Source: an uncultured Rhodocyclaceae bacterium (GTDB taxonomy: Bacteria; Pseudomonadota; Gammaproteobacteria; Burkholderiales; Rhodocyclaceae). Taken from it: a stretch of 64,000 nt of DNA. Within the stretch, counting starts at the first letter, position 1. Every line of letters begins with the position of its first letter. Positions 3,456-46,945 of the stretch are shown here, piece by piece. A model generated the notes under the pieces. That model saw nothing but the letters and a program-made list of their open reading frames with translations. It ran no database searches and had not been told where the DNA came from. The stretch covers positions 804 through 64,803 of the forward strand of contig CAZWFC010000001.1 of the NCBI GenBank assembly GCA_964632965.1. Direction: 5' to 3'. Both the position numbers and the translations under genes were made by a program.

Positions 3456-3472
3456 TGCGGCAAAATGTCGCG
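3456..3472. promoter_or_regulatory. Candidate RegA/PrrA-type operator (TGCGGCA-AAA-TGTCGCG)
   Basis: A 17-bp near-palindrome read directly from the sequence, about 135 nt upstream of the TBDR start at 3320. It has the same architecture as the other sites listed below. Confidence 0.45.
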
Positions 3473-3551
3473 CACGGGGTGGCAAGTCATGGCCGACGAT
3501 GTGAGTATCGTCGCCGTCTATGTCGGTCGTGCCTTAGCGCTCGTCGCTATT

Positions 3552-3860
3552 TCACTCCTCGTTTGGCGACTGCCGGTCGGCACCGAGCACATCGCACGCC
3601 GCGCTGTCGGCGGCACCCGCCGGCGTCAGGCAGTGCTGCGCGTCGCAAAGGGCGATGCCGGAGCGGCTGCACAAGCCGAACAGCCGGCGCTGCAAGTCGG
3701 CGCCGAGATTCAGGGCGGCGGGCACCGGCCATGTCGTCATCAGCAGCGACAGATCGAGAACGTCGCCGGCCATCTTGCGTATTCCGTCGGGGCAGGCGCG
3801 GTCGTCGGCCAGCCGCCGGGCGTTGGCGGAAACCCTGCGCAGGGAATCGGTGGTCGTCAT
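3552..3860 (-). CDS. Hypothetical small cytoplasmic Cys-containing protein (102 aa)
   Basis: ORF 3552..4076 trimmed to ATG 3860, because the upstream part overlaps the 3' end of the neighbouring TBDR. No signal peptide, 5 Cys, GC3-rich codons. I recognised no family. Confidence 0.5.
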   Translation of the reverse strand: MTTTDSLRRVSANARRLADDRACPDGIRKMAGDVLDLSLLMTTWPVPAALNLGADLQRRLFGLCSRSGIALCDAQHCLTPAGAADSAACDVLGADRQSPNEE

Positions 3861-3924
3861 GAATTCCGGGTTGCATCCGATGAAGTTACGTCCGCAATTT
3901 TGACGGCCTGCGCCACCGGATTCA

Positions 3925-3958
3925 TGCGGCATGTCGCCGCATGCGACATCGTGCCGCA
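3925..3958. promoter_or_regulatory. Two abutting candidate RegA-type operators
   Basis: TGCGGCA-TGT-CGCCGCA (3925-3941) is directly followed by TGCGACA-TCG-TGCCGCA (3942-3958). They lie in the 127-nt gap between the TBDR stop (3988) and the small-gene start (3860). Confidence 0.45.
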
Positions 3959-3987
3959 GTCCCTTCCGTCGTCGCAACGGCGGCGGC

Positions 3988-6072
3988 TCACCACTTTCCT
4001 TCCAGCGACAGCAGTACGGTGCGCGTTCCCCTGTCGGTGGCGGCGAGCGACCAGGTTGCGCCGGGCGCGGAGGCATCGAGCTGGCGGCGGGTGTCGGCGC
4101 GCAGCAGGTTCTGCAAGGACAGACGCAGGTTCAGGGAGCGGCTCAGCTTCTGCAGCGCGTAGGCATCGAACACGGTGCGGCGCCGGGTTTCATAGGCTTG
4201 TTCGCCCGGCACCTGGGTGAGGACGCGGCCGTTGTGCTGCATCGATACGCCGAAGCTCTTGTCGGCCAGGGTCTGGTCGAAGCCGGCGCTGAGGATGTAG
4301 CGCGATGAATCGCGCGCGGCGCGGCTGATGCCCAAGCGCTGGTCCTCCACCCGGCTGCGCGGCACGGTCAGATGGGCACGGAATGTCGCGCCGCGCCAGC
4401 CGAGGCTGTCGGCGCGCAGCTTGCCGTCGAGTTCCACGCCCCAGTGGCGGGCGGCGCCTTCGTTGTAGGGGCGGTCCACCCAGCGCGCGCCTTCCTGCTG
4501 GACGCGCCTTTCGATGAACTCCTCCGTCTGCCGCAGATAGGCGTTGGCGCCGAAGACGCCGGCTTCGTCCGGCAGGTAGCGTTCGAGCACGGCCTCGAAA
4601 TTCACGCTGCGCTCGGGGCGCAGGTTCGGATTGCCGCGCCGGTCGGGTTCCAGCGGCGTGTTGGCATTGACGCTGAATACCGGCTGGTTGGTGAGTTCGT
4701 CGAGGCGCGGCGGCTTGATGCCGGCGCCGAGGGACGTGCGCAGCACCCAGCGCTGCACCGGTTCCCAGCGCAGGGCCAGCGAGGGCAGCAGGCGCCGGTG
4801 GCTCTGGCCGGCGCCGTCGACGGCATAGCGGAGGACTTCGCCGCGCAGACCCGATGTGACGGTCGTCCCGGCGCCCGGACTCCACTCGTCCTGCACCCAG
4901 GTGCTCCATTGCCTGTCCCAGGCCGAGTGCGTTTCGTCGGCCGTCACGGCGCCGCTGTTGATCTGGCTCTCGTCGCGGCGGTGTCCGTTCTCCTCGACGC
5001 TGGCGGCGAGCACATGCTGCCCCGCGCTCCAGTCGAGACGGACGGCGCCGCCCAGGTCGCGCTCCTTGCGGCGCATCTGTTCGTTCGAGAGCGTGGCCGC
5101 TCCGGCGGCGGTGAGCGCGTTGCGCTGCGTATCGGCGTAGCGTGCGCCATCGGAGAACGCCAGCCGCGCGGAATACTTGCGGCCGTCGCGCAGCATCTCG
5201 GCGTCGGCGCGCAGGCGGTTGAAGGCATTGCGGCTGCGCTCGTTGTCGTTGCGCGTGGTGCTGTTGGCCGGGGTGGCGAGGTCGCTGCGTTCGAAGGCGT
5301 TGTCGCCGCGCCCGAAGGAGCGGAAGATCACCGGGTTGATGGACAGGCTGTCGCTGCCGGATTTCCACGCCAGGCGCGGCGACATCACGAATTCGTTGGT
5401 CTTGCGGTCGCCGTGTTCGTCGTCTTCCTGGCGGATTCCGGTGCTGTCGCTGCGGCTCGCCTGCCGCCCCGACGGCATGTCGTGGTGGTTCAGCGTCACC
5501 GGCAGCAGCCAGGAGAAGGCCTGGTCGCCGCCGCCCTTGGTGTAGGAGGTCTGGACCAGCGGCTTGCCGTTGCGCCAGCCGCCGGCCGCCTTGAAGGCGG
5601 TGGATTCCCGCGACAAGGGCTTGTTGAGCACCAGGTTCACGCTCAGCGGCGCGCTGCCGCCGAATTCCGCCGACGAGCCGCGCACGATTTCGACCCGTTG
5701 CAGTTCCGTGGAAGGCAGGCGGCCGACGATGGCCTGGGCCATGCGCGCATTGCCGGGAACGCGCTCGCCGTCGATGAGGATTTGCACCGAATCACGCACC
5801 ATGCCCCGCGAACGCAGTCCCATGGCGCCGTCGGCGCCCGGCGTGCCGGCATCGACGCCGGGCAGCTTGCCCATCACGTCGCTGATCGTCAGCGCGCCCA
5901 TGGCCTCGATGTCCTGGCGGTTGATGACGACTTTCTGTGTCGCGGCCTGGCGGCGCTCGGCGATGTCGTCCTCGCCGCCGGCGGTGACCGTCATTTCCGG
6001 GAGTGTTTTTTCACCGGCCGCCCAGGCGTTTGCCAGGGTCAGCCACAAGGGCAGCAGAAGGTATCGTTTCAT
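3988..6072 (-). CDS. TonB-dependent outer-membrane receptor
   Basis: Signal peptide MKRYLLLPLWLTLANAWA. Plug motifs are present (EMTVTAG, GLRSRGMVRDSVQILIDGERV, VEIVRGSSAEFG). A 694-aa barrel ends in ...LSLEGKW. Confidence 0.9.
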   Translation of the reverse strand: MKRYLLLPLWLTLANAWAAGEKTLPEMTVTAGGEDDIAERRQAATQKVVINRQDIEAMGALTISDVMGKLPGVDAGTPGADGAMGLRSRGMVRDSVQILIDGERVPGNARMAQAIVGRLPSTELQRVEIVRGSSAEFGGSAPLSVNLVLNKPLSRESTAFKAAGGWRNGKPLVQTSYTKGGGDQAFSWLLPVTLNHHDMPSGRQASRSDSTGIRQEDDEHGDRKTNEFVMSPRLAWKSGSDSLSINPVIFRSFGRGDNAFERSDLATPANSTTRNDNERSRNAFNRLRADAEMLRDGRKYSARLAFSDGARYADTQRNALTAAGAATLSNEQMRRKERDLGGAVRLDWSAGQHVLAASVEENGHRRDESQINSGAVTADETHSAWDRQWSTWVQDEWSPGAGTTVTSGLRGEVLRYAVDGAGQSHRRLLPSLALRWEPVQRWVLRTSLGAGIKPPRLDELTNQPVFSVNANTPLEPDRRGNPNLRPERSVNFEAVLERYLPDEAGVFGANAYLRQTEEFIERRVQQEGARWVDRPYNEGAARHWGVELDGKLRADSLGWRGATFRAHLTVPRSRVEDQRLGISRAARDSSRYILSAGFDQTLADKSFGVSMQHNGRVLTQVPGEQAYETRRRTVFDAYALQKLSRSLNLRLSLQNLLRADTRRQLDASAPGATWSLAATDRGTRTVLLSLEGKW

Positions 6073-6090: not shown

Positions 6091-6783
6091 TCAGAAGGTC
6101 CGGAGGATCTGGCTCACGCCGACGAGGATCAGCAGGCCGGCGCTGAGCGCCTCGATGCGCGGGCGCCACGGCCCCAGCTGTTCGCGCAGGCGCGCGCCGA
6201 TGTAAGCGACGCCGAGGCCATACACCAGCGACGGCACGACGATGGCGCCGAGGCCGAAGCTGAGCCCGAGCAGGAAGCCGTCGGCGGCCAAGCCGGACGC
6301 CGCGGCCGAGAACAGCACCACGCCCAGCGGCGCGCAGGGCGTCAGCGCCATGCCGACGCCCATCAGGAACAGGCCGCCCGGCAACAGCGGCCGCGGTGCG
6401 CCGGCGAAGTCGATGCGCCGCACCGGCTGGACGTCGCCGGCGGATGCCGCCGTCGTCGCGCAGGCGGGGCGGCGCTGCCAGAAGAGAGCGAGGCCGACCA
6501 TCAGGGCGGCGGCGCCGACGAGCAGGTGCAGCTGCGGCGCGGCGGCGGTGCCGGCCTTGACGAAATGGCCGGCCCAGCCCGCCGCCAGACCGAACAGCGA
6601 GTAGCCCGTCAGGCGTCCGAGGGACAGCGGCAGCACGACGCGCCAGGAGCGGCGAAGGCTGAAGTCGCGGGCGAGGAACACCGGGCCCAGGTAAGGCAGG
6701 CAGCTGACGAGGCAGGGGCCCAGGCCATAGACCAGCCCGAGGGCCATGGCCATGGGCAGGCCGACGACGGTTTCGACGGGCAT
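6091..6783 (-). CDS. Polytopic membrane protein, DsbD_2/CcdA-like or TauE/SafE-like
   Basis: ORF 6091..7200 trimmed to ATG 6783, which forms an ATGA overlap with the upstream stop. 230 aa, about 6 TM helices. It has GPCLVSC in TM1 and LTPCAP in a later TM. Paralog of 46226..46927. Confidence 0.75.
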   Translation of the reverse strand: MPVETVVGLPMAMALGLVYGLGPCLVSCLPYLGPVFLARDFSLRRSWRVVLPLSLGRLTGYSLFGLAAGWAGHFVKAGTAAAPQLHLLVGAAALMVGLALFWQRRPACATTAASAGDVQPVRRIDFAGAPRPLLPGGLFLMGVGMALTPCAPLGVVLFSAAASGLAADGFLLGLSFGLGAIVVPSLVYGLGVAYIGARLREQLGPWRPRIEALSAGLLILVGVSQILRTF

Positions 6784-7586
6784 CAGGACGCCTCGGCGAG
6801 GAACTCGCTGCGCGCCAGGATGGCGGCGCCCAGGGCGGTGGTCGTCTGCGCGTGCTCCGGCACCACGAGTTCGTGCTGCAACTCGTCCTGGATTGCCGCC
6901 ACCAGGCCCTTGTTCAGGGCCGGACCGCCGTCGAAATAGACCCGGCCCTCGATGCCGACGCGCTTGGCCAGACGCACCGTGCGCTTGGCGATCGAATAGT
7001 GGATGCCGGCGATGATCTCTTCCTTGCCGTGGCCGTTGGCGAGCAGGCCGATGATCTCGGATTCGGCGAACACCGTGCAGGTGGCGTTGATGGTCAGCGG
7101 CGCGCCCTTGCTGTTGAAGTGGTAGTCGCCCAGCTCCTCCAGGTCGACATCGAGATTGCGGGCGGCGACGTCGAGAAAGCGCCCGGTGCCGGCGGCGCAC
7201 TTGTCGTTCATGACGAAGTTGGCGACGTTGCCGCCGGCATCGATCTGTATCGCCTTCGAGTCCTGGCCGCCGATGTTGATGATGGTGCGCACGCCGCCGA
7301 AGGCCTTGCCGACTTCATGCGCGCCGATGGCGTTGGCGGTGATCTCGGATATCGAGTCGTCGGCTTCCTTGAACAGCTTGCGGCCGTAGCCGGTGGCGAT
7401 CAGGTATTTCACCTGCTCGCGCGCGACGCCGTGCTGCTCCAGCAGGACGTGCAGGGTTTCCTTGGCGTTCTTGTGGAACAGGCTGCCGGAGTCCCTGACA
7501 TGGACGCCGACGATTTTCCCCTCGCCATCCACCAGCGCCACCTTGATGGCGGTGGAGCCGATGTCGAGGCCGGCGAAATAGTTCAT
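6783..7586 (-). CDS. BcrAD/BadFG/HgdC-family ATPase (activase of 2-hydroxyacyl-CoA-dehydratase-type Fe-S enzymes)
   Basis: ORF trimmed to ATG 7586 (MNYFAGLDIGSTAIKVALVD). Family motifs are present: GGQDSK, NDKCAAGTGRFLD and CTVFAESE (the Cys pair that bridges the dimer 4Fe-4S cluster). Confidence 0.85.
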   Translation of the reverse strand: MNYFAGLDIGSTAIKVALVDGEGKIVGVHVRDSGSLFHKNAKETLHVLLEQHGVAREQVKYLIATGYGRKLFKEADDSISEITANAIGAHEVGKAFGGVRTIINIGGQDSKAIQIDAGGNVANFVMNDKCAAGTGRFLDVAARNLDVDLEELGDYHFNSKGAPLTINATCTVFAESEIIGLLANGHGKEEIIAGIHYSIAKRTVRLAKRVGIEGRVYFDGGPALNKGLVAAIQDELQHELVVPEHAQTTTALGAAILARSEFLAEAS

Positions 7587-7635
7587 GCTGCCTCCGCCGG
7601 GCCGCCCCAAGAGGGCAGCGAGTCGATGGCCCGGA

Positions 7636-7685
7636 GCGAACACCGTTCGCGAACAAGCGTCACCCCCCTTCCGCGGGAAGGGGGG
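7636..7685 (-). promoter_or_regulatory. Intercistronic stem-loops between the HGD-D-type gene and the activase gene
   Basis: GCGAAC-ACC-GTTCGC at 7636-7650. CCCCCCTTCC-GCG-GGAAGGGGGG at 7663-7685, a perfect 10-bp stem. No T-run follows on the transcribed strand. Confidence 0.4.
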
Positions 7686-7701
7686 CTGGGGGGGATGGTT
7701 C

Positions 7702-8985
7702 TCATGTCATTTTCCTCTTGCGGGTCTTGATCGATTCGAGGAAGGCCTCGATGCGCGTCGACAGCTGGCCCTGGTCGTCGGGGCTGTAGTCGGTTTCGAT
7801 GTAGAGCATGGGAATGCCGGCCGCGTTTAGCGCCGCGGCGACGCTCTTCTGTTCCATTTCGTACACCTGGCAGCCGGCGAAGGCCTGGTACACGACGCCG
7901 TCCACCGCGAAGCTGCGCGCCAGTTCCAGCAGGCGGCGCTTGCGGTCGTCGTTGCGCGTGAAGATGGGGCAGGTGCAGGGCTTCAGGTACCTGTCGGCGA
8001 GACTGTCCACCATGTCGTTGAGCAGCCACTCGTCGACGGCGGTCATGTCGTAGAGCATGCGGTTGGCGGAGCAGGTCTCGTCGGCGACGACGACGCCGCC
8101 CGCTTCCTCGATCAGCAGCGGCAGCTTGAGGTTCGGAAACACCGGCGGCGAGCCCGTGAACAGGATGCGCGGCGCCTTGCGCTGCGCTGCCTGGTAGCCA
8201 TCGGCCTGGCGCTGCGCCAACTCCGTGTTGAGCTTTTCCACGGCATCGGTCCAGCGTTCGATGTCGTCGAAGAAGAAGGCGTTGGTGATGAGGAAGACGT
8301 CCTTGCCGAGCATCAGCGCCGGGCTGGCCTTGCGGAAGTCGTGCAGCCGGCGGAAGGCGGCCTGGGCCTGGCCGGTGCGCGCCATCGCCGCCTTGAGGTT
8401 CTTGCGCGTCAGCTTCCTGCCGGTCACCTCGCGCAGCTTCTGCGCGAACTGGCGCACCGAGCGCTGCCAGTAGAGCCGCGCCTCCTCGCTTTCCTTGACG
8501 CTGGGCAGCTCCAGGTTGTAGACGGCATGGCCCATGTCCTCGATCATCGCCGAGGCCTTCTTCTTCTGGTCGCAGGTGGTGGGATTGACGACCAGGTCGG
8601 GCTTGCCGATCCGGGGAACGGGGGCTTCGGAATGCAGCATGCCGAGCGTGGCCTTGACCAGGGAACACGATTTCGCCGGCATGAAGTCGGCGCCGACCTG
8701 GTCGTAATGGTAGGAGCCGTTGCACAGGCGCACCGGCGTCGCGCCGAGGGCGTAGATGAGTTCGTCCGGCACCTGGATGCAGGTGGTGCCGATCAGCTTG
8801 CCGCTGTGGGGCAGCGGCTCGCCCTGGATATAGACGCGGCGGAACAGGTCGTAGAAATACTGCATCGCTGCGGGGTTGCCGTCGAAATCGTCGGTGATGT
8901 GGTCGAGTGCGACCTCCGCTTCGCGCGCCTGGCGCGACAGGTTGTAGGCCGGCTGGCCGCGTTGCGGCGTGGATGTCGTGGTCAC
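7702..8985 (-). CDS. HGD-D family Fe-S protein (2-hydroxyacyl-CoA dehydratase / benzoyl-CoA reductase B-C / double-cubane-cluster protein family), single subunit
   Basis: ORF 7702..9957 trimmed to GTG 8985, which forms a GTGA overlap with the upstream stop (427 aa). Family-like blocks are present: GTTCIQVPDELIYALGATPVRLCNG, TTCDQKKK, ADETCSANR, KPCTCP and FAGCQVY. The exact start is uncertain. Confidence 0.8.
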   Translation of the reverse strand: MTTTSTPQRGQPAYNLSRQAREAEVALDHITDDFDGNPAAMQYFYDLFRRVYIQGEPLPHSGKLIGTTCIQVPDELIYALGATPVRLCNGSYHYDQVGADFMPAKSCSLVKATLGMLHSEAPVPRIGKPDLVVNPTTCDQKKKASAMIEDMGHAVYNLELPSVKESEEARLYWQRSVRQFAQKLREVTGRKLTRKNLKAAMARTGQAQAAFRRLHDFRKASPALMLGKDVFLITNAFFFDDIERWTDAVEKLNTELAQRQADGYQAAQRKAPRILFTGSPPVFPNLKLPLLIEEAGGVVVADETCSANRMLYDMTAVDEWLLNDMVDSLADRYLKPCTCPIFTRNDDRKRRLLELARSFAVDGVVYQAFAGCQVYEMEQKSVAAALNAAGIPMLYIETDYSPDDQGQLSTRIEAFLESIKTRKRKMT

Positions 8986-9974
8986 GGCGTGTGTCCCTTG
9001 TGCATGCGCTTGATGAATCCGGCTTCGGTGGCTGCGAAGACGGGAATGCCGGCGAAGGTGGCGCTGAGCGCGCCCGGTTCCGGGCAGGCGGCGACGCACT
9101 TGAAGCACAGGGTGCAGTCGTCGCTCATGATGTCGGCCTTGTCGACGTCGTCGGCGATGGCCTTGATCTCCATGTCGCAGACGCGGTAGCAGTCGCCGCA
9201 GCGGGTGCATTTGTCGCCGTCCTTCTTCAGCTTCAGCAAGGCCGGCTTGGACATCAGGTAGTGCAGCGCGCTCATCGGGCAGAAGAAGCAGAAGAAGCGC
9301 TTCTTGACGAAGGAACCGACCAGGAACAGGCCGGTGACCGCCATGCCCAGCGCGGTCATTACCAGCGCCGTCCGGCTCGAGAAGTCGATGGTCAGCTGCG
9401 AGAAATCCCCCGTGAACATCGGCAGGACCATGCGTGCCGGGCAGATCAGACAGAACGGCGTCGCCATGTCGCGCGAGAAGAAGCCGCCGCCGATGCCGAG
9501 CGGGATCAGGATCGTCAGCGCGAGCAGGACATACTTGATCCGGGTCAGCTGCGCGAACTGCCCCCGGCTGTAGCGCGAGTAGCGGATGCCGAGGCGGCGG
9601 CGCAACGCGGTGATCCAGTCCTGGATCGTGCCGAGCGGACAGACGAAGCCGCACCAGCCCTTGTTGAGGACGATGAACCAGAGGCCGAAGACGAGGAAGC
9701 CGGTGAGGATGGCGAGGCTGGCGGCGCTGAACAGCATCGGCCAGGAGCGGCTCAGCTGGTGCTGCAGCGGCAGCAGGTAGCACACGCCGCCCCGCCCGTC
9801 CTGGTTGTAGCCGCAGGAGAAGAAGGGCAGGCGCGAGCCCAGGTCGATGGCGAGGTAGCCGCCATAGACGAAGAGGACGAAGCCGGCGATCTGGAACCAG
9901 AAGCGGAAGCGGTTCCAGTCGACGCGATTGACGGCGTCGCGAACCGCCTGCAGGCACGCGTTATTTGGCGTCAT
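8982..9974 (-). CDS. NapH/NosH/MauN-type polytopic membrane protein with two ferredoxin-type 4Fe-4S motifs
   Basis: ORF trimmed to ATG 9974. It has several TM helices, a CGFVCPLGTIQDW motif and a second membrane CxxCP motif (FFCFFCP). The C-terminus carries CTRCGDCYRVC and CTLCFKCVAACP. Confidence 0.8.
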   Translation of the reverse strand: MTPNNACLQAVRDAVNRVDWNRFRFWFQIAGFVLFVYGGYLAIDLGSRLPFFSCGYNQDGRGGVCYLLPLQHQLSRSWPMLFSAASLAILTGFLVFGLWFIVLNKGWCGFVCPLGTIQDWITALRRRLGIRYSRYSRGQFAQLTRIKYVLLALTILIPLGIGGGFFSRDMATPFCLICPARMVLPMFTGDFSQLTIDFSSRTALVMTALGMAVTGLFLVGSFVKKRFFCFFCPMSALHYLMSKPALLKLKKDGDKCTRCGDCYRVCDMEIKAIADDVDKADIMSDDCTLCFKCVAACPEPGALSATFAGIPVFAATEAGFIKRMHKGHTP

Positions 9975-11361
9975 CGAAGCGCACCTCCGGGAACGGCCTG
10001 ATCCGGCGCCGGCGATAGAGATAGACGGCGGCGCCGCCGAACAGCACGATCGCCAGGCCGACGCCGAGGCCCCAGGCATAGGAGCGGTAGTCCTCGGGCG
10101 ACGGGTAGTAGTTGCCGGCCAGGGTGGCCTGATAGCGCACACCGGTGTAGGGCTGGCCCTTGTAGCTGCCGGCTTCGGCGGCGCTGGCTTCGGCGATGAG
10201 CAGGAAGCTCGCCTTGAAGCGTTTCTGGAACTCGTTCCAGGGCGGGAAGTAGTCGCGGATGATCTGGAAGCTGACGCGGCCCTGCTCGTCGCTGACCGCT
10301 TCCTTGGTCCAGCCCTGGTGGCTGACGAAGCGCACCCGCGCCCCCGCCGCGGGCAGGCCCTTCTGCAGGACGACGAAGACCTGCTCGTCGCCGGAGCGCA
10401 GGCGGAAGAACAGCGGCTTTTCGTTCGGCTGGCGCTCGCGCACGATCTCGATCGGCGCCGAGTCCAGCACCCGGTCGGCGGCGGCGCCCCTGGCGCGTTC
10501 CTCCTCCTCGGCATCGTGGGTGAAGTTGCCGACTTCGGCCTTGGCGACGCTGACGCTCAGGGTTTCCCCCTGCAACTTGCGGGTGGTGGCGTACACGCGG
10601 TAGAAGCCCTGTGCCGGCATTTCGAAGGCCAGATTGCGCTGGCCTGCGGCGGGCGGCGGCAGGGGGTCGCCCTCCGGTTTGCCGAACGGCGCGACGAGGA
10701 CGGTCTCCGGCGCCGCATCGGCCTCCTCGCGGTAGAACGGCGACTTCTGTGGGTCCGTGCCGCTGCGCAGCCACAGGCGCTTGACGCGCGGCCCGCCGCC
10801 CATGTCCATTCCCCCCATATCCATGCCGCCCATGCCGCCGCGGCGGCTGCCTTCCGGGCGCACGGCGTCGCCGCGCATCGGCGGCATGTCCGAGATCCAG
10901 ATCGTGCCGCCGCCGCGCATGCCCATGCCGCCGGGCCGGCCGCCGCTGCGGGAACTGTCCTCGGGCTTGCCGGCGACAGTCGGTGGCGCGCCCGCGGCGA
11001 CTTTTTCCGTTGCCGTGCCGTGCCGATGGCCGGCGTCCGCAGCCGGTGGGGCGGGTGGCACGGCCTTGTCTTCCTGCGCGGCGCGTTTGGCGCGCCACTC
11101 GGCTATCTGTGCTGCGCTGGGGCGTCCGCTGCCCGGCTGGGCAGCGTCCGGTTTGCCGCCGGGCTGCGCCGATGCCGCCGGTGCGCCGTCACCTTCCGCC
11201 TTGGCGCGCTCCGCCGCCCGTTTCTGGTAGAACGCCCGCCGTTCCTCCGGGCTGGCGCCCTCGGGCGGACGCGAACCGCTGCTCCCGTCCTGCGCCAGGA
11301 CGAGGCCGCTCGCCAGCAGCGTCAGCAATGCCGGCACGATGCGATGTGTCAGGTGGCTCAT
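9961..11361 (-). CDS. Exported Met/Gly-rich protein with a DUF4198-like (CbiK/NikM-periplasmic-like) C-terminal domain and a C-terminal TM anchor
   Basis: ORF trimmed to ATG 11361 (signal peptide MSHLTHRIVPALLTLLASGLVLA). It has a low-complexity Ala/Pro/Gly region and a Met-rich tract, GGMGMRGGG...MPPMRG...GGMGGMDMGGMDMGGG. An Ig-like block (VFVVLQKGLPAAGARVRFVSHQGWTKEAVSDEQGRVSF) is followed by a terminal TM helix plus RRRR. The DUF4198 assignment is from memory of that family's pattern. Confidence 0.7.
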   Translation of the reverse strand: MSHLTHRIVPALLTLLASGLVLAQDGSSGSRPPEGASPEERRAFYQKRAAERAKAEGDGAPAASAQPGGKPDAAQPGSGRPSAAQIAEWRAKRAAQEDKAVPPAPPAADAGHRHGTATEKVAAGAPPTVAGKPEDSSRSGGRPGGMGMRGGGTIWISDMPPMRGDAVRPEGSRRGGMGGMDMGGMDMGGGPRVKRLWLRSGTDPQKSPFYREEADAAPETVLVAPFGKPEGDPLPPPAAGQRNLAFEMPAQGFYRVYATTRKLQGETLSVSVAKAEVGNFTHDAEEEERARGAAADRVLDSAPIEIVRERQPNEKPLFFRLRSGDEQVFVVLQKGLPAAGARVRFVSHQGWTKEAVSDEQGRVSFQIIRDYFPPWNEFQKRFKASFLLIAEASAAEAGSYKGQPYTGVRYQATLAGNYYPSPEDYRSYAWGLGVGLAIVLFGGAAVYLYRRRRIRPFPEVRFDDAK

Positions 11362-11368
11362 GATCGGG

Positions 11369-13669: not shown

Positions 13670-13725
13670 GGTGCTTGACTCCGTTATCTGGATTGAATGA
13701 GGTTTTCCGTCCGGCCGACGGGCAG

Positions 13726-14957: not shown

Positions 14958-14962
14958 GGAAG

Positions 14963-15634: not shown

Positions 15635-15730
15635 TGGCAGGCAACGCCGATCCGCCGGGTCGCGACGAAACGAAGCCGCCTATGCCTTAAGTGAGGCGGC
15701 ATTAAATCGGACACTGCCGGTGCTGGGAAT

Positions 15731-15832
15731 GCGGCACGTTGTCGCGCGGCGGATTGCCGCGCGGCATCTTGCCGCACCATCGATTCGTCATGATTGCCGT
15801 GCGGCATAACGCCGCATGCGACGCTGTGTCGC
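15731..15832. promoter_or_regulatory. Array of five GCGNC-N5-GNCGC units in the divergent tonB / TBDR control region
   Basis: Three units abut exactly: GCGGC-ACGTT-GTCGC | GCGGC-GGATT-GCCGC | GCGGC-ATCTT-GCCGC (15731-15775). They are followed by GCGGC-ATAAC-GCCGC (15801-15815) and GCGAC-GCTGT-GTCGC (15818-15832). Confidence 0.5.
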
Positions 15833-15894
15833 AGGGGCGCGGGCGGGCGCGCACCTAGAATCACGGACTTTCACGTTTCCTTCCAAAAATCATC

Positions 15895-18162: not shown

Positions 18163-18179
18163 TGCGGCAATTTGTCGCA
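18163..18179. promoter_or_regulatory. Candidate RegA-type operator (TGCGGCA-ATT-TGTCGCA)
   Basis: Near-perfect 17-bp palindrome between the TBDR stop (18102) and the second tonB start (18265). Confidence 0.5.
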
Positions 18180-20242: not shown

Positions 20243-20259
20243 TGCGACAATATGTCCAA
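20243..20259. promoter_or_regulatory. Weak candidate RegA-type operator (TGCGACA-ATA-TGTCCAA)
   Basis: One perfect and one degenerate half-site, about 125 nt upstream of the Sel1-repeat gene. Confidence 0.3.
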
Positions 20260-20382: not shown

Positions 20383-20973
20383 ATGAGAATGTTGCCGCGA
20401 ATTGTTCTGGGAGCATGCCTCGCTCCCCTGTTGATCTGGTCGAGCCTGGCATGCGGCAGCGACGCCGACGGTGATCTGCGGCACGCGGCGAAGTTGCAGA
20501 AGAACGGCGAAACCGCGACGGCTCTGGCGATCTGGAAACGCTGGGCGGAGAAAGGCAATGCCGACGCCGCCTACAACCTGGCGGTGATTCATCAGCACGG
20601 CGACGGTGTGGCGGTTGACTACGCGCAGGCCCTGCACTGGTATCGCCATGCCGCTGCACTCGGCGACCGCATCTCGGAATACCAGATCGGACTGATGTAC
20701 CAGATCGGTCAGGGCGTGGCGGCCGATGCCGCAGAGGCACACCGCTGGTTTACCGCACACCGTTCCCATCATGCGCATCACGAGCGAAGCGAACAGATGC
20801 AGACATGGCGGAAGCAGGCGGCCCGACTGATCGAGGAGAGCGACCGGCGCGAGGCACTGGTCAAGTCGCGTGCCGATAGCGCACGCGTGCTCGCCGAATT
20901 GCGGCGGCGAGCCGGCGCATCCGCAGCGCCTACCGATGTCGCTGCTGCGGCGACGGACCGGCCCATCAATTGA
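20383..20973 (+). CDS. Sel1-repeat (SLR/TPR-like) lipoprotein with a His-rich segment
   Basis: ORF 20095..20973 trimmed to ATG 20383 (MRMLPRIVLGACLAPLLIWSSLAC, a lipobox). Sel1 repeats are present (GNADAAYNLAVIHQHGDGVAVDYAQALHWYRHAA..., YQIGLMYQIGQGVAADAAEAHRWF). A His run follows: HRSHHAHHE. Confidence 0.75.
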   Translation: MRMLPRIVLGACLAPLLIWSSLACGSDADGDLRHAAKLQKNGETATALAIWKRWAEKGNADAAYNLAVIHQHGDGVAVDYAQALHWYRHAAALGDRISEYQIGLMYQIGQGVAADAAEAHRWFTAHRSHHAHHERSEQMQTWRKQAARLIEESDRREALVKSRADSARVLAELRRRAGASAAPTDVAAAATDRPIN

Positions 20974-20989: not shown

Positions 20990-21523
20990 TTGAAGCTCCT
21001 GTTCATCGACGATGACCGCCGTTTTTCAAGCGTGGCTGCCCGCGCGCTCGGGCGGCGCGGTTTCAAAGTCAGGATCGCCCCGGATGCGGCCTCGGCTCTG
21101 CGCCTGGTCGACAGTGAAACCGGATTCGCAGTGGTCGATCTGCAACTCGGCGCGGTTTCCGGCCTGACCCTGCTGCCCCGGTTGAAGGCGACGAACCCCG
21201 CGATGCGCATCCTCATGCTGACCGGCTACGCCAGCATCGAAACGGCGGTGGAAGCCATCAAGCTCGGGGCGGACGACTATTTGCTCAAGCCGGTCGATAT
21301 CGACACCCTCGTCGCGGCCTTGCGCAACGACACCGCCGGACAGCATGAACGGGCCGACGCCAAGCCGCTGCCGCTCAAACGGCTGGAGTCCGCCCACATT
21401 CGGCAGGTGCTGTCCGATTGCCGCGGCAACATTTCCGCCGCCGCGCGCGCCCTGCAGATGCATCGGCGCACCTTGCAAAGGAAGCTGGCAAAAAGCGAGG
21501 CCGGGCGAAACGTTGCGATATGA
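20990..21523 (+). CDS. RegA/PrrA/ActR-family response regulator (receiver + Fis-type HTH); no partner kinase adjacent
   Basis: TTG start at 20990, 7 nt after GGGAGG. Receiver blocks are present: LLFIDDD, VVDLQLG..SGL, MLTGYASIETAVEAIKLGADDYLLKP. The C-terminal HTH GNISAAARALQMHRRTLQRKLAK is the near-invariant RegA-family signature. Confidence 0.8.
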   Translation: MKLLFIDDDRRFSSVAARALGRRGFKVRIAPDAASALRLVDSETGFAVVDLQLGAVSGLTLLPRLKATNPAMRILMLTGYASIETAVEAIKLGADDYLLKPVDIDTLVAALRNDTAGQHERADAKPLPLKRLESAHIRQVLSDCRGNISAAARALQMHRRTLQRKLAKSEAGRNVAI

Positions 21524-22176
21524 ATATGCGGTTGCGGCAATCCGCTGAAGCGTTCTTGAAAGCGGAGCCCTTGTCCGCCGCCGCAAGTGACGATGGCACG
21601 TCGAGTGCGAGGCATCATGCACCGGGCGAGCGCATCCATGAAGCAGGCGCATCGGGTTCGGCATGGCGCGTGATATCGGGCGTCGTGCGCCTGGATGCGC
21701 CCGAAGGCGCGGACGGCCGCCTGGTGTTCGCGGGCCTCGCCGTTCCGGGAGACATCGTCGGCGCCGAAACCCGGATGTTCGGCCTGTGCTTTTTCGGCGC
21801 CACGGCGCTGACGCCCACGAAACTGTCGCCCTGGCCCGGGGCAACGGCGCCGCAGGCGGACTTCCTCATGAACGCCCTGGCCCGGGCCGAGAGACGCACC
21901 GCCAGAATGATGGGGCTGCGGGCTGGACAGGCGATCGACCGGGTCAAGCGCCTGATCCAGTTGCTGGTGCCGCACAGGGACGGCGAAGCCTTCATCGAGA
22001 TCGAGCTGCCGTCCTTGCGCGACATCGCCGACATCACCGCCTTGACCATGGAAACGGTTTCCCGTTCGTTGAGCGGCCTGCGTCGGCAAGGCATGCTCGA
22101 ACCCAGCGGCCAGCGGCGCGGCAACGGCAGGAAGAACTGCCGTTGCCGCGTGCCGGACGCCCCGGCGGCAGCCTGA
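21520..22176 (+). CDS. Crp/Fnr-family transcriptional regulator
   Basis: ATG 21520 forms an ATGA overlap with the regulator stop. It has a cNMP-binding-like beta-roll (VISGVVRLD...VFAGLAVPGDIVG) and a C-terminal HTH (LPSLRDIADITALTMETVSRSLSGLRRQGML). Confidence 0.75.
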   Translation: MNMRLRQSAEAFLKAEPLSAAASDDGTSSARHHAPGERIHEAGASGSAWRVISGVVRLDAPEGADGRLVFAGLAVPGDIVGAETRMFGLCFFGATALTPTKLSPWPGATAPQADFLMNALARAERRTARMMGLRAGQAIDRVKRLIQLLVPHRDGEAFIEIELPSLRDIADITALTMETVSRSLSGLRRQGMLEPSGQRRGNGRKNCRCRVPDAPAAA

Positions 22177-22210: not shown

Positions 22211-22227
22211 TGCGACAACATGTCGCA
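22211..22227. promoter_or_regulatory. Perfect 17-bp palindrome TGCGACA-ACA-TGTCGCA (candidate RegA-type operator)
   Basis: Read directly from the sequence. It lies 35 nt after the crp/fnr-like stop and 64 nt upstream of the small ORF that precedes SCO1. Confidence 0.55.
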
Positions 22228-27737: not shown

Positions 27738-27884
27738 GCCGCGCGTCATTTGCCGCCCGATCGCGCACGCAAGCATGAAGAACGCAAGGGTGCGGCATCG
27801 TGTCACATGAGGTATCAGCCCTCTCGGCGCATCTCCCCGACTGTAGCTGCAAATCCGGCAGCCGAAACATTAGCGGGGATCACC

Positions 27885-36378: not shown

Positions 36379-36395
36379 TGCGGCAAATTGCCGCA
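36379..36395. promoter_or_regulatory. Candidate RegA-type operator (TGCGGCA-AAT-TGCCGCA)
   Basis: Perfect 7-3-7 inverted repeat in the divergent region between the ECF sigma gene and the tlpA-like/Cu-ATPase operon (start 36457). Confidence 0.5.
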
Positions 36396-36456
36396 GAAGG
36401 CCGTGGAGCGGGGTTTGCGCTATGATGCGAACGACTAACTCCGGTGTGCGCCACGC

Positions 36457-36951: not shown

Positions 36952-37136
36952 GCGACCCGAACCGGCCCTGCGATCTTTGCGCCCTCGCCGTCGGCATCAA
37001 GCCTTTCGCGTTGCCGACCCCGGGAAAGACGCTCGAATTCTGCTGCGAGGGCTGCAAGGGGATTTACGAAATGTTGCACCAGATCAATGAACCGCCGGCT
37101 GGATCGGCACAGAATGATTCGACCGAATCGCACTAA
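36948..37136 (+). CDS. 62-aa Cys-rich mini-protein resembling the N-terminal metal-binding domain of FixI/CcoI-type ATPases
   Basis: ATGA overlap with the tlpA-like stop. Translation MSDPNRPCDLCALAV...LEFCCEGCKGIYEML (a CxxC ... CCxxC pattern). Confidence 0.6.
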   Translation: MSDPNRPCDLCALAVGIKPFALPTPGKTLEFCCEGCKGIYEMLHQINEPPAGSAQNDSTESH

Positions 37137-37146
37137 GGAGATCGCC

Positions 37147-37503
37147 ATGTTGATGGAAGAAGCTGCCAAACACGCCGCAGGACAGATGCCTGGCATGATG
37201 GGTGGGATGATGACCAATCCGATGGCCCACGGCGCCATGATGGCGGCCACCGGCTTCGCTGCCGGGCGCGGACTGGTCGGCGCGACGCTGTTCCGCAATC
37301 CGCTGCTGCTGCTGGCTGGCGGCATTGCCGTCGGTTACCTGCTGCACAAGTACGAAAAGGAAATCGTGCTGGCGGTGACCAAGGCCACGGGCATGGGCAA
37401 GGACTTCGTGTTGCAGCAGCAGGAAAACCTCAACGACCTCGTCGCCGAGGCGCAGCAGACAGAGGCGCAGGAAGGTGCCGCCGCCGCGCCGCCGCAGGGC
37501 TGA
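37147..37503 (+). CDS. Small Met-rich membrane protein (118 aa)
   Basis: ORF 37087..37503 trimmed to ATG 37147, with AGGAG 8 nt upstream. N-terminus QMPGMMGGMMTNPMAHGAMMAATG, then TM helix LLLLAGGIAVGYLL. Confidence 0.6.
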   Translation: MLMEEAAKHAAGQMPGMMGGMMTNPMAHGAMMAATGFAAGRGLVGATLFRNPLLLLAGGIAVGYLLHKYEKEIVLAVTKATGMGKDFVLQQQENLNDLVAEAQQTEAQEGAAAAPPQG

Positions 37504-37510
37504 TCCCGTC

Positions 37511-38167
37511 ATGAACGTAGAGGAATTGGCGCGGCGGATCGTCGTCCGCCACCGGGAGCTTGGTCATTTGCGGCTGGAACTGCCGGCGGAGTTGTGTCGC
37601 GCCGCGACGGCGGCCGTGGTGGAAGGAAGCCTGAGGCAGGTGGAAGGAGTCTATCGCGTCGACTTCGATCTCCCCTCGCGACGGCTGTCGATTCGTTTCG
37701 ACAGCCATGTCTGTACGACCGGCGATGTGGCGCGCCAGTTGAAAACATTGCTGAAGCGGGTGGCGCCTCATTTGCCCGCTTACCTGCCCCCATCGGCCGC
37801 TTCGGCGTCATCGGATGGCGAAGTGCTGGCGAACCATCCGTTCCACAAGGTCGGCGAGCGGGTGCGCGAGGTGGCACGGGAGGCCGCCGCGCGCGTGAAG
37901 GTGGCGCTTGCGGGCCTGAATCCGCCCGCGGTCGCGGAGGGTTCGCTGCAAGCCAAGCTGCAGCCGGTGATCGCCAGTGCGCTCACCGAGAAGGCGATCA
38001 CCAACTTCATCAACGACATCGTCGCCTTCTACCTGATCAAGGTGCATTGGGAACTTATTTCGCAGCGCTGGCTGAAAGACCCGCTCAAGTTCCGCAACGC
38101 CTGGCTGACCACTTTCTACCTCGTCTTCCTGCTCGTGCGTTACCGCAAGCAGGGCGCGAAGAAATGA
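37511..38167 (+). CDS. Hypothetical protein: Cys-less HMA-like N-domain + C-terminal membrane segment
   Basis: ORF trimmed to ATG 37511. The N-domain pattern (LGHLRLELP...[21 protein letters not shown]) parallels the first domain of the downstream ATPase. C-terminal helices [11 protein letters not shown] and [10 protein letters not shown]. Confidence 0.55.
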
Positions 38168-40590
38168 ACTTCAGCGTCGCCCATCGCCTGACACGCCGCA
38201 TCCGCCTGGTGGCGCCGCCGCTGGTCAAGCAGCCGGAGCGCTGCTACCTGCTCGAAATTTTGCTGCGCAAGCATGCCGCAGTGAAGGATGTGCGCATCGT
38301 GCCGGAGATCGGCTCGTTGACGTTGTATTACGATCCCGCGCAACTGCCCGAGCCGCGCCTGCTCGCCGTTGTCGATGCGGTGATCGGCAATATTGCCACG
38401 GCTGCGCCTGCGCCCCCGCCACCGGCCCCTCTGGTGGCCGACGGCCCGGTGCAGGAGTGCAACGTCGCTGTCGAGGGCATGACATGCGCCTCGTGCGCAG
38501 CATTGATCGAAATGTCGCTGAAGCGCGATCCGCGCGTGGCCGATGCCGGCGTGAATTACGCCGCGGAAACGGCGACCGTGCGCGGCCAATTGACACGCGA
38601 CGATGTCTTCGCGCTCGTGAACAAGCTCGGCTACCGGCCGCACCCGATGGATACGCTGGCCCAGCGCCGCCTGATGGTCGAGCGCGAGAAGGTGCGGCTG
38701 GCCGAAGCGAAGCGGCGCCTGGTGCAGGCCGCATGGCTGACGGTGCCGGTGATGGTGTCCGGCATGCTGATGCACCGTTCGCCGGCCCTGCGCGTCATGG
38801 AACTGGCGCTGTCGTCGGCCGTCCTGTTCGGCAGCGGCAGCGAGATTTTCCGCAAGGCCTGGGCTCTCGCCAAGCAGCGCGAGGCGAACATGGACACGCT
38901 GATCGCGGTCGGTGCCGGCGCTGCCTACGCCTACAGCCTGCCCGGCGCGCTGCGCATGCACCACCACGTCTATTTCGAGTCGGCCGCCGGCATCGTCGCC
39001 TTCGTGCTGCTCGGCCGCTACATGGAGGAACGAGCCAAGGGCAAGGCCTCCGAGGCGATACGCAAGCTCATCGAACTGCAGCCCGAGACGGCGATTCGCA
39101 TCACGGTGCAGGGCGACGAGACCGTGCCGATCGACGCGGTGCAGGTCGGCGACCTGCTGCGCGTGCGGCCCGGCGACAAGGCGCCGACTGACGGGGTGGT
39201 GGTCGAGGGCGCCTCGCGCGTCGACGAATCCATGCTCACCGGCGAGTCGCTGCCGGTGGCGAAAGGGCCGGGCGACGCGGTCGTCGGCGGTTGTCTGAAC
39301 GGCAACGGCGCCTTCACCCTGCGCGTTACGGCCATCGGCGGCAATACCGTGCTCGCCGGCATCGTCAAACTCGTCGATCACGCGCAAGGCTCGAAACTGC
39401 CGGTGCAGAAGCTGGCCGACCGCATCTCCGCGCGTTTCGTGCCGGCCGTCGGCGTCGTTGCCGCAGCCACCTTCGGCGGCTGGCTGCTGGCGGGCCACCC
39501 GACCTCGCGCGCGCTGGCGCACGCCGTCGCGGTGCTGCTGATCGCCTGCCCCTGCGCGCTCGGGCTGGCCACACCGACCGCGATCATGGTCGGCACCGGC
39601 CAGGCGGCGCGGCGCGGCATCTACATTCGCAACGGCGAAGCATTGGAAACCGCGGCGCAACTCACCACCCTGGTGTTCGACAAGACCGGCACCATCACCG
39701 AGGGCCGGCCGGTCGTCACCGACTTCGTCGCCATCGAGGGCGCGGATGAAGCGCACCTGCTTGCCCTGGTCGCCGGTGTCGAAGCGCATTCCGAACATTT
39801 TCTCGCCCGGGCCATCGGCGCCTTCTGCCGGGCGCGCGGCGCCGCGCCCGCGCCGGTGGCCGATTTCGAGGCCTGGCCCGGCCGCGGCGTGCGTGCCCAT
39901 GTCGGCGCGGGCGAACTCCTGATCGGCAACAGCGCGCTGATGGAATCAGCCGGCATCGCCGTCGACCGGCAGGCCGACCAGGCCGAGGCACTGGCGGCGC
40001 AGGGGAAGACGCCGGTATTCGTGGCCCACGAGGGCATGTGCGTCGCGCTCTTCGCCATCGCCGACCGGCCGCGCGCCGGCGCGCGCGAAGCCATCGCCCT
40101 GCTGCACCGGCTCGGCCTCGTCACCATCATGGCGACGGGCGACGTGGCCGCGGCCGCCAACCATATCGCGCGCGAAGTCGGCATCGATCGCGTCATCGCC
40201 CGCGCCACGCCGGCCGACAAGCTGGCGCTGATTCGCAGTTTGCAGGCGGAAGGAAAGAAAGTCGGCATGATCGGCGACGGCATCAACGACGCCCCCGCGC
40301 TGGCGGCGGCGGATGTCGGCTTCGCCATCGGCGGCGGTGCCGACATCGCGGTGGAATCCGCCGACGTCACGCTGGTCGGCGGCGACATCGCCCGCGTCGC
40401 GGCCGGCATCGACCTTTCGCGGCGCACCATGACCGTGATTCGCCAGAACCTCTTCTGGGCGCTGGGCTACAACACCGTTTCCATTCCCGTCGCGGTGGCC
40501 GGACGCCTCAATCCGATGATCGCCTCGGCGGCCATGGCGCTCTCTTCGGTGTCGGTGGTGACGAATTCGCTGCGGCTGCAGCGGCCGTAG
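38164..40590 (+). CDS. P1B-type heavy-metal (Cu+) translocating ATPase
   Basis: ORF 37594..40590 trimmed to ATG 38164 (ATGA overlap). HMA GMTCASC, TGES, CPC in TM6 ([14 protein letters not shown]), [13 protein letters not shown]. 808 aa. Confidence 0.9.
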
Positions 40591-46042: not shown

Positions 46043-46134
46043 CCATCGGCGGAGGTAAGACGCAAACAGTTGCCGGAATGGGGTATCGCGCCGGGAATGG
46101 ACGGCATCCTATGCTTTCGCCGCCGTTCCCGGAA

Positions 46135-46151
46135 TATGGCAAATTGCCGCA
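46135..46151. promoter_or_regulatory. Weak candidate RegA-type operator (TATGGCA-AAT-TGCCGCA)
   Basis: One perfect and one degenerate half-site in the divergent region between the ECF sigma gene and 46226. Confidence 0.3.
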
Positions 46152-46225
46152 GGCTGCCGGTTTTAGAGTTATCCAGCGGTTGTTGGTTAGAATCCACCGG
46201 CCCGATTTCTCATGTCTGAACATTC

Positions 46226-46927
46226 ATGGATCATTCGCATCACCATGCCGTAGCCGAGTTCTCCTACTGGCTGGCCTTCATGACCGGGCTGCTCGGCAGC
46301 GGCCATTGCCTGGGTATGTGCGGCGGCCTGGTGTCCGGCTTCTTCATGAAGCTCAACGCGAAAGGCGTGTCGCCCTACCTCGCCTACCATGGCGCACGTG
46401 TATCGGTGTATGCGCTGATCGGCCTCGTCGCCGCGCTGGTGGGCACGGTGCTGGTGGCGACCGGCATGGTCGGCCTGGCGCAGGGGGTGTTGCAGATTGT
46501 CGCCGGCGTCATCGTCATCCTGCTCGGACTCGATCTGCTGGGCGTTTCGCCGTTGCGCAACAGCGTCGGTTTTGCTCCCCTGGCCTGGTTGCGCCGCCAG
46601 TTTGTCGCCGCAACGCAGAAGGGGCCGGTGGCCGGCGCGCTGATCGGCGGCGCCATCAACGGCCTCATGCCCTGCTCGATGACCATGGCGATGGCGGTGC
46701 AGGCGACCACCGCACCGTCGCCACCCGAGGGCATGCTGCTGATGCTGGCCTTCGGCGCCGGCACGCTGCCGGCGATGCTCTCGGCCTCTTTCCTCTTCGG
46801 CAAGTTCGGTCCGCGGCTGCGCGGCTGGCTGCTCCGGGGCGCGGCGCTGTTCGTCATCGCCTTGGGCGTGTCGACGCTGTGGCAGGGCGTGCGCTTCTAT
46901 CTCGTCATGTACAAGCTGGTGCTCTGA
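46226..46927 (+). CDS. Polytopic membrane protein, DsbD_2/CcdA-like or TauE/SafE-like, with a His-rich N-terminus
   Basis: MDHSHHHAV..., GSGHCLGMCGG in TM1, GLMPCSMTMAM in a later TM. 233 aa, about 6 TM helices. Paralog of 6091..6783. Confidence 0.75.
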   Translation: MDHSHHHAVAEFSYWLAFMTGLLGSGHCLGMCGGLVSGFFMKLNAKGVSPYLAYHGARVSVYALIGLVAALVGTVLVATGMVGLAQGVLQIVAGVIVILLGLDLLGVSPLRNSVGFAPLAWLRRQFVAATQKGPVAGALIGGAINGLMPCSMTMAMAVQATTAPSPPEGMLLMLAFGAGTLPAMLSASFLFGKFGPRLRGWLLRGAALFVIALGVSTLWQGVRFYLVMYKLVL

Positions 46928-46928
46928 C

Positions 46929-46945
46929 TGCGACAACATGCCGCA
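46929..46945. promoter_or_regulatory. Candidate RegA-type operator (TGCGACA-ACA-TGCCGCA)
   Basis: Begins 2 nt after the stop of 46226..46927 and lies 67 nt upstream of the ATG at 47012. Confidence 0.5.

Follow-up and report, generated by a model that had tools for sequence, protein, structure and literature searches.

A conserved palindrome resembling RegA-family operators precedes metal-uptake and copper-related operons in an uncultured Rhodocyclaceae bacterium

We analysed a stretch of 64,000 nucleotides from an uncultured Rhodocyclaceae bacterium (contig CAZWFC010000001.1, assembly GCA_964632965.1), hereafter called the window, in which a 17-bp palindrome, TGCGRCANNNTGYCGCA (TGCGRCA-N3-TGYCGCA), recurs in front of metal-uptake and copper-related operons. 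The gene map was based on open reading frames (ORFs) chosen with the guidance of GC content at third codon positions (GC3) and on Pfam and NCBIfam matches, and several starts were corrected by signal peptides. The region from 1 to 47.6 kb, to which we refer as the island, contains seven TonB-dependent receptors (a to g), two tonB-exbB-exbD sets and three modules that each combine an extracytoplasmic-function (ECF) sigma factor, a FecR protein and a receptor. It also contains a SCO1-FtsX-ABC operon, a DsbD_2 gene, the genes of two NosL-like proteins, and a group in which a TlpA-like thioredoxin and a Met-rich protein are encoded together with a copper P1B-ATPase (TIGR01511, 572 bits, over the cut-off). 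The genes for a Sel1-repeat protein, a response regulator and a Crp-like protein occupy 20383-22176, and the remaining 16 kb (48-64 kb) is a housekeeping part. This gene context agrees with the original prediction, in which a reading of the bare sequence had led to the proposal that one redox- or metal-responsive regulator of the PrrA/RegA type acts on the palindrome throughout.

Exact matches to the palindrome occur at five positions (3942, 18163, 22211, 36379 and 46929), against an expectation of 0.00 in 100 dinucleotide shuffles of the window. When up to two mismatches are allowed, 17 matches are found, compared with 2.46 expected and a shuffle maximum of 7. A single mismatch is present at 3456, 3925, 15730, 15760, 15800, 15817 and 27791. 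Two mismatches are present at 20243 and 46135, both in gene gaps, and at 38264, 44776 and 57567, each of which lies within coding sequence and is probably a chance match. With refined gene starts, only 9.95% of the window is intergenic, and all 12 of the 12 sites with at most one mismatch fall between genes (binomial p = 9e-13), as had been proposed; the housekeeping part contains no such site. An unbiased count of 7-mers ranked by intergenic enrichment places TGCGACA/TGTCGCA first and TGCGGCA/TGCCGCA fourth. A pattern scan recovered every site of the original prediction at the position given there, and the observation on which that prediction was built is confirmed. Its count of at least nine intergenic regions requires a small amendment: the sites that it listed occupy eight regions, because 3456 and the 3925/3942 pair sit in one of them, and the total of nine is reached once the box at 27791, which had been missed, is added.

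Where do these boxes stand with respect to the genes? An exact box at 22211..22227 lies 63 bp 5′ of the small ORF that opens the SCO1-ABC operon (from 22291 to 26186) and is followed by a -10 hexamer, TAGCAT, at 22251-22256. A second exact box (18163..18179) precedes tonB2-exbB2-exbD2 (18265-20042) by 85 bp, with a -10-like TACCCT at 18202-18207, and a third (46929..46945) is located 66 bp 5′ of a NosL-like gene with a twin-arginine (TAT) signal (47012-47623), with TAATAT at 46968-46973. The exact box at 36379..36395 lies between the divergent ECF2 gene (minus strand) and the TlpA-like/Met-rich/Cu P1B-ATPase operon (36457-40590, plus strand), and has TATGAT at 36421-36426 on its plus side and CAGAAT 23 bp on at its minus side. 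Between the tonB-exbBD-receptor-c operon (minus strand) and the divergent receptor d gene (plus strand) there is an array at 15730..15833. Its boxes at 15730, 15745 and 15760, set at a 15-bp step, face the minus-strand promoter (TTTAAT 24 bp on), the middle one (15745-15761) being a weaker copy that overlaps each neighbour by 2 bp, and the abutting pair at 15800 and 15817 is directed at the plus-strand promoter (TAGAAT, 15856-15861). Two multimer geometries are therefore found in a single intergenic region, an overlapping 15-bp step (15730-15776) and the 17-bp abutting arrangement seen elsewhere.

At the left end of the island, a box with one mismatch (3456..3472) is situated about 136 bp 5′ of the refined start (about 3320) of the gene for TonB-dependent receptor a (1116-3320, minus strand), with a -10-like TACTAT at 3432-3427 on the minus strand. 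The predicted leader of this gene includes a terminator-like hairpin with a T-run (3348-3369, minus strand), placed between the inferred transcription start (about 3420) and the start codon, which could be an attenuator; about 0.4 chance matches to such hairpins are expected in the region scanned. Two abutting boxes (3925-3941 and 3942-3958, 17-bp step) lie between two receptor genes, with a -10-like CAAAAT on the minus strand 23 bp past the proximal box, and they may serve either a second receptor a promoter or an unannotated transcript. The intervening 450 bp or so (3473-3924), into which this hexamer points, contains no convincing gene, its ORFs having poor GC3 or no family, and may hold an unannotated transcript or a long leader. 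A weak box at 20243..20259, with the right half TGTCCAA, is found 123 bp 5′ of the operon of the Sel1, response regulator and Crp-like genes, with TACGCT at 20283-20288, and is a putative autoregulatory site. Finally, a box with one mismatch (27791..27807) falls between the FecR1 stop (27737) and the refined receptor e start (27882), and a weak box (46135..46151) falls between the ECF3 gene (minus strand) and the DsbD_2 gene (plus strand), where the -10-like hexamer at the standard distance, TAGGAT, belongs to the minus side and thus points to ECF3.

The distance between box and hexamer is regular. In the window, TAnnnT begins 23 to 26 bp past the box in 8 of 13 gene-facing site orientations (background 1.4%, p~1.6e-12), and three further gene-facing orientations have near-matches, 5 of 6 letters, at the same place. 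No -35-like hexamer occurs at the proper distance. The right half of the box was itself considered as a -35 hexamer and rejected, since the spacer to the -10 hexamer would be 24-25 bp. If TAnnnT is the -10 element, the box would span about -51 to -35, with its centre near -43/-44. Because the box is centred near -43 and a -35 element is missing, activation is suggested, and the layout resembles that of an activator-dependent, class-II-like sigma-70 promoter, although a box so placed could also repress by occlusion. Abutting boxes at a 17-bp step (3925/3942 and 15800/15817 in the window, and others in the related loci L081, L087, L170 and L171, described below) suggest the binding of two dimers.

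The same regularity bears on the idea that the copies are extragenic palindromes of the repetitive extragenic palindromic (REP) kind, or RNA hairpins with a role in termination or stability, and that no dedicated regulator is involved. It is true that each copy can fold into a hairpin with 7 bp in the stem and 3 nt in the loop (-9 to -14 kcal/mol), that some copies are tandem, and that those at 3925/3942 and 46929 lie just past stop codons. However, no U-tract follows the hairpins, the boxes keep a fixed 23-24 bp to the -10 hexamers and lie 5′ of the inferred transcription starts, and orthologous promoters from different bacterial classes keep the box unchanged between diverging flanks. Moreover, the 16-kb housekeeping part has no copy, and Rfam finds a single match in the window, a tRNA at 62758-62831 just 5′ of prs. 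REP sequences and bacterial interspersed mosaic elements (BIMEs) are high-copy palindromes that lie mostly downstream of genes and have no fixed relation to promoters, a description that the box does not fit. We consider this explanation exceedingly improbable.

What kind of protein would recognize such a box? In the original prediction, the core GCGNC-N5-GNCGC had been given as a PrrA/RegA-type consensus and likened to the RegR box of Bradyrhizobium. This core is matched exactly by 11 of the 14 window sites, and the box also fits experimentally derived consensus sequences. Of the sites, 12/14 fit the PrrA motif YSCGGC(5)GWCRMA, quoted in PMC5506826, and 10/14 fit the RegR box GNGRCRTTNNGNCGC, which stands verbatim in the same paper, with 0-1 mismatch; a related form of the consensus appears in PMC5435760. 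The likeness to the RegR box is thus borne out, and a literature search pairing PrrA with GCGNC returned no match. The literature describes RegA/PrrA sites as degenerate and their spacers as variable; chromatin immunoprecipitation sequencing of PrrA yielded no motif (PMC4263372), and no motif was derivable for the RegA of Acidithiobacillus (PMC5506826).

A wider connection with this family emerges from other genomes. Among the matches listed from genome and metagenome contigs, the RegA homologues of Beta- and Gammaproteobacteria, which are about 44-56% identical to the regulator of the island, provided 167 loci (2.33 Mb). These hold 98 copies of the exact core TGCGRC-N5-GYCGCA, against about 2 expected from a composition estimate, and 73 copies are located 1250-1500 bp before the regulator start, just 5′ of a RegB-like kinase gene. 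Counted by locus, the core stands just 5′ of regB in 72 of the 129 listed loci with enough upstream DNA, and the best family of the kinase genes behind these boxes is ActS/PrrB/RegB. The box is therefore tied to the RegA family as a whole, and its position before regB-regA is what one would expect if the regulator controlled its own operon through it, the classic signature of autoregulation. The promoter layout is the same as in the window, in that TAnnnT starts 23 or 24 bp past the box in 70 of 94 distinct sites. In one locus with a canonical regBA pair (L168, 6644-7322), the box lies between regB and a divergent gene for a PCuAC-type (PF04314) copper chaperone, and in a Thauera locus (L014, 3538-6310) a conserved box is found close to a NosR-like gene, about 6.5 kb 5′ of regA. 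It may be that RegA generally acts on copper genes and on accessory genes of N2O reductase.

These comparisons also bear on the Crp-family regulator encoded beside the response regulator (21520-22176) as the binding protein. The window and loci L084/L085, L173 and L175 each have a Crp-family gene within the island or close to it, and a half-site spacing of about 11 bp suits Crp-type dimers. In the original prediction, the odd length of the palindrome had been held to argue against a Crp/FNR-type site; this argument is weak, because the half-site spacing is about 11 bp in both types. The sequence is nonetheless unlike TTGAT-N4-ATCAA or TGTGA-N6-TCACA, yet it matches the PrrA and RegR consensus sequences. 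Because the motif persists in L081, L170, L171 and L087, whose regulator genes have no Crp gene with them, and marks regBA operons in the 72 of 129 unrelated listed loci, a Crp-type site is very unlikely.

The island encodes a candidate of the RegA type. The gene at 20990-21523 (plus strand) specifies an orphan response regulator resembling RegA, PrrA and ActR, of 177 aa, the same length as the 98%-identical cluster representative P0001. It has the architecture of the family, a receiver (Response_reg, 1.4e-22) followed by a Fis-type helix-turn-helix domain (HTH_8, 3.5e-12; both Pfam); as is usual for the family, there is no AAA+ domain and the length falls within about 170-190 aa. Its best NCBIfam match is ActR/PrrA/RegA (NF033791). 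The recognition helix, MHRRTLQRKLAK, is identical to that of Burkholderia pseudomallei RegA (3RQI) and differs by one residue, K for I, from its counterpart in PrrA's DNA-binding domain (1UMQ, MHRRTLQRILAK); over the pattern NMHRRTLQR(I/K)LAK, QMHRRTLQRKLAK aligns with NMHRRTLQRKLAK of 3RQI and NMHRRTLQRILAK of 1UMQ. In the receiver, the N-terminal DDD, the D in VVDLQL, the T in LTGY and the K in LKP align with 3RQI, and the protein keeps the predicted phospho-acceptor aspartate and the conserved receiver residues. The clade to which this regulator belongs is small and known solely from metagenomes and metagenome-assembled genomes; its gene is not beside a RegB kinase, and its signatures RL(E/Q)(S/A)xHIR and NIS(A/G)AARAL differ from the RLEWEHIQ and NISATARAL of canonical RegA. 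In most of the clade loci that were fetched, the regulator gene is preceded by a Sel1-repeat gene, the exception being L170, where no Sel1 gene was called. The Sel1-repeat protein of the window (20383..20973, plus strand) begins with a signal peptide and shares 56-67% identity with its orthologues in different classes (L081 5131-5700, L171 341-949 and L087 776-1366), and an invariant His cluster, HRxHHxHH (RWFT-HR-HH-HH), occurs in 4 of 4 aligned sequences. It is a candidate periplasmic metal-binding partner. The Crp-family gene downstream of the regulator (21520..22176, plus strand) holds this position in close relatives only.

Is the box maintained where the operons themselves are shared? 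Orthologous loci were retrieved by exact-protein look-ups. L081, L170 (labelled Kiloniellales, Alphaproteobacteria) and L171 share with the window the Sel1-regulator module, the SCO1 operon with its small ORF, 106-aa protein, FtsX, ABC and 332-aa genes, and the TlpA/Met-rich/Cu-ATPase module, whereas L173, L174 and L175 are from other Rhodocyclales genomes. At the SCO1 operon, the window, L081, L170 and L171 have the same box and -10 hexamer, unchanged amid diverging flanks. The NosL orthologues have an exact box 65 bp (L173) and 63 bp (L175) upstream, compared with 66 bp in the window. TlpA genes are preceded by a box in L174, L170 and L081, in the same arrangement as at 36379, the box of L174 lying between ECF and TlpA genes. 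Boxes also stand 5′ of the Sel1-regulator or regulator genes of L081, L087, L170, L171 and L173, and in orthologous loci tandem boxes precede both Sel1-regulator genes and divergent TlpA or receptor genes. The weak box at 20243 has counterparts as well: in L087, a weak site whose right half is degenerate in a similar way stands about as far from the Sel1 start, and L173 has a comparable weak site 5′ of its regulator gene, another orphan RegA-like gene embedded in the island. Such embedded orphans are found in three lineages. The check on conservation that accompanied the original prediction therefore comes out in its favour, in that the box is kept 5′ of orthologous operons in distant relatives.

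The island is probably horizontally mobile, since the proteins of the shared modules are 66-87% identical between the window and L081, L170 and L171, that is, between Alpha- and Betaproteobacteria, above the 61-62% of the regulator. Consistent with mobile DNA, a nucleotidyltransferase/HepT toxin-antitoxin pair is inserted in the otherwise contiguous copper island of L173 (Sterolibacteriaceae MAG5, 8492-9111).

Taken together, these observations lead us to propose that the palindrome is an operator of the RegA/PrrA/ActR family and that its likeliest binder is the orphan regulator at 20990-21523, acting as an activator; from the sequence comparisons, we put the probability of this reading at roughly 0.7. 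The interpretation given in the original prediction was thus largely right. In the mechanism that we envisage, the orphan regulator would bind TGCGRC-N5-GYCGCA as a dimer and, once phosphorylated by a kinase in response to a copper or redox signal, would most probably act as a class-II-like activator that recruits sigma-70 RNA polymerase; where promoters are stronger, a pair of abutting boxes (17-bp step) would accommodate two dimers. The conserved core regulon would consist of the small ORF-SCO1-ABC operon, the TlpA-like/Met-rich/Cu P1B-ATPase operon, NosL and the regulator's own operon; in this Rhodocyclaceae genome, the regulon would also include an OprC-like receptor, other TonB-dependent receptors and the two tonB-exbBD sets. 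The result would be that the cell acquires copper and delivers it to cuproenzymes. An extension of this proposal, which we offer tentatively and regard as doubtful, is that the Sel1 His-cluster protein and the orphan regulator form a previously undescribed module for sensing copper starvation, one that travels with the mobile island and switches it on.

Several points weigh against the proposal. First, the regulator reaches 148 bits against the equivalog cut-off of 250 bits for NF033791 and is therefore a divergent relative or paralogue within the RegA family, not an equivalog. Second, no six-transmembrane kinase of the RegB/PrrB/ActS type is encoded in the 64-kb window, and none lies beside the regulator. 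Third, RegA has been reported to be a negative autoregulator in Rhodobacter, and a box ending at -35 could repress. Fourth, the tandem pair 3925/3942 has no clear downstream gene, and no -10 hexamer is found at the standard distance from 27791 or on the plus side of 46135, so that the function of the 27791 box is uncertain. Fifth, several receptors are siderophore- or haem-like, and "copper" therefore does not cover the whole gene set. Sixth, a canonical RegA with the same recognition helix is probably encoded elsewhere in the genome and could bind the boxes, and L175 has the NosL box without a RegA-like gene within 10 kb.

This last point can be enlarged into an alternative, namely that the canonical, RegB-partnered RegA, a global redox regulator, binds the boxes, while the orphan is a modulator or binds other DNA. 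The recognition helices of the canonical and island proteins are identical, the boxes 5′ of canonical regB are indistinguishable from those of the window, and the L168 regBA promoter shares its box with the divergent PCuAC-type gene. Conversely, in the window, L081, L170, L171, L087 and L173 a RegA-like gene forms part of the island itself, and boxes, often tandem, precede each of these genes, as expected for autoregulation. We judge this alternative unlikely. It differs from our proposal only in the paralogue that binds, the two are not mutually exclusive, and the identity of the helices makes binding by the one inseparable here from binding by the other. One claim of the original prediction went too far: a single regulator for the whole 48 kb does not accommodate the three ECF-sigma/FecR/receptor modules (siderophore- and haem-like), which have a box at some promoters only and are probably self-controlled.

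The remaining gene content has features of its own. We considered and rejected the idea that all seven receptors import copper: d is the sole receptor resembling OprC/TonB-copper, and the likeness is weak; e and f are of the siderophore type, f being FoxA/CntO-like and followed by a PepSY_TM gene; g is of the haem type; and a to c are without assignment. The intergenic regions of the window hold no Fur box (at least 12 of 19 matches), so that the regulator to which tonB and receptor genes usually answer is not evident here; inside genes, there are 10 Fur-box matches compared with 4.2 in shuffles, near chance level. The SCO1 operon comprises, in order, the small ORF (22291-22470) and the genes for SCO1, a 106-aa protein, FtsX, the ABC ATPase and a 332-aa membrane protein. 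The small ORF encodes a hydrophobic protein of 59 aa with no Cys or His, which is 87% identical to its alphaproteobacterial counterpart in L081 and more conserved than any neighbouring enzyme. The 332-aa multi-pass protein (25188-26186) has an HPHHHCPFC motif, and the 138-aa protein encoded between the TlpA-like and Cu-ATPase genes (37087-37503) has a Met-rich stretch, MPGMMGGMMTNPMAHGAMM; both sequences look like copper ligands. Neither Pfam nor NCBIfam gives a match for the small ORF or for the 106-aa, 332-aa or Met-rich protein.

The minus-strand operon at 6783-15634, which includes tonB-exbB-exbD and receptor c, runs on into three more genes, encoding a DUF4198-like protein, a 751-aa protein like the D-component of 2-hydroxyglutaryl-CoA dehydratase and an activator ATPase of the BcrA/BadF type; such genes are unusual company in an operon for TonB-dependent uptake. 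Beyond the island, the sole kinase of the window (51853-53346; HAMP, HisKA and HATPase domains) follows an unassigned ORF (49925-50821) and a gene for an NMT1-like periplasmic binding protein (50827-51840). It is an orphan, with no response regulator adjacent, and some 30 kb separate it from the RegA-like orphan; that the two are partners is pure speculation.

How does this arrangement compare with known systems? RegB/RegA of Rhodobacter capsulatus, PrrB/PrrA of R. sphaeroides, RegS/RegR of Bradyrhizobium, ActS/ActR and RoxS/RoxR are global redox two-component systems. The island regulator resembles their response regulators in its receiver and Fis-type helix-turn-helix (about 180 aa), in its conserved recognition helix and in the GCG...CGC inverted repeat with a 5-bp spacer, and in both cases boxes at the regulator's own operon suggest autoregulation. 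Unlike them, it has no adjacent RegB-type kinase and instead has a secreted, His-rich Sel1-repeat protein as a conserved neighbour; its putative operator is sharp, with fixed spacing and position, whereas published RegA/PrrA sites have been called degenerate; and its predicted regulon is a compact set for metal uptake and cuproenzyme maturation, not photosynthesis and respiration genes. In Rhodobacter, senC (SCO1/SenC) lies beside regA in the regB-senC-regA cluster, and a SCO1 gene lies near the RegA-like regulator of the island; RoxSR matters under copper starvation in Pseudomonas. In Bradyrhizobium, RegR has been reported to affect copCAB (PMC4064962). The CruR-CrtA-PepSY_TM copper-uptake operons of Bordetella and other Betaproteobacteria are controlled post-transcriptionally via an upstream ORF and Rho, and no control of a copper receptor in Betaproteobacteria other than that by the CruR upstream ORF has been described (PMC12914433). 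Like the island, they tie TonB-dependent copper import to the supply of haem-copper oxidases, have no Fur box and sometimes include dedicated tonB-exbBD, ScoI and PCuAC genes. In contrast, the conserved element of the island is a DNA palindrome by the -35 position, which implies control of transcription initiation, and no CruR-like Cys/His peptide was seen in the window, where no dedicated search for one was made. CopRS/CusRS, CueR and CsoR likewise control copper-handling genes, including P1B-ATPases and the OprC receptor, but they are members of the OmpR, MerR or CsoR families that answer an excess of copper and use unrelated operators; neither their genes nor their boxes were found beside the island operons.

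The cis element and the protein class described here are already known. What is new is an orphan, Sel1-partnered RegA paralogue residing in a mobile copper-related island, a regulon in which genes for copper import and copper chaperones are joined by tonB and receptor genes, and an operator that is sharp in sequence and position in a family whose sites have been described as degenerate. Bacterial defence against copper excess is well understood, whereas the sensing of low copper and the induction of uptake are not. Copper acquisition pathways were still called "poorly characterized" in 2026 (PMC12914433). A palindrome that stands in front of operons for copper and metal uptake gives a tangible lead as to how bacteria turn on the acquisition of copper: one operator and an embedded RegA-type regulator link candidates for copper import, the chaperones SCO1 and NosL, and a TlpA-like reductase with a copper ATPase, and the island supplies testable promoters and a candidate sensor protein. 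The link thus offered is one between the sensing of the respiratory chain, by the logic of RegB/RegA, and the supply of copper to its oxidases. If the tentative extension given above holds, the Sel1-RegA module would be a dedicated transcriptional regulator of the response to low copper in Proteobacteria, and, as a side result, the grammar of the RegA family in Beta- and Gammaproteobacteria would be TGCGRC-N5-GYCGCA, 22-23 bp and TAnnnT. An operator of such precision, in so fixed a geometry, could enable the prediction of regulons across many members of the Beta- and Gammaproteobacteria, among them pathogens such as Stenotrophomonas.

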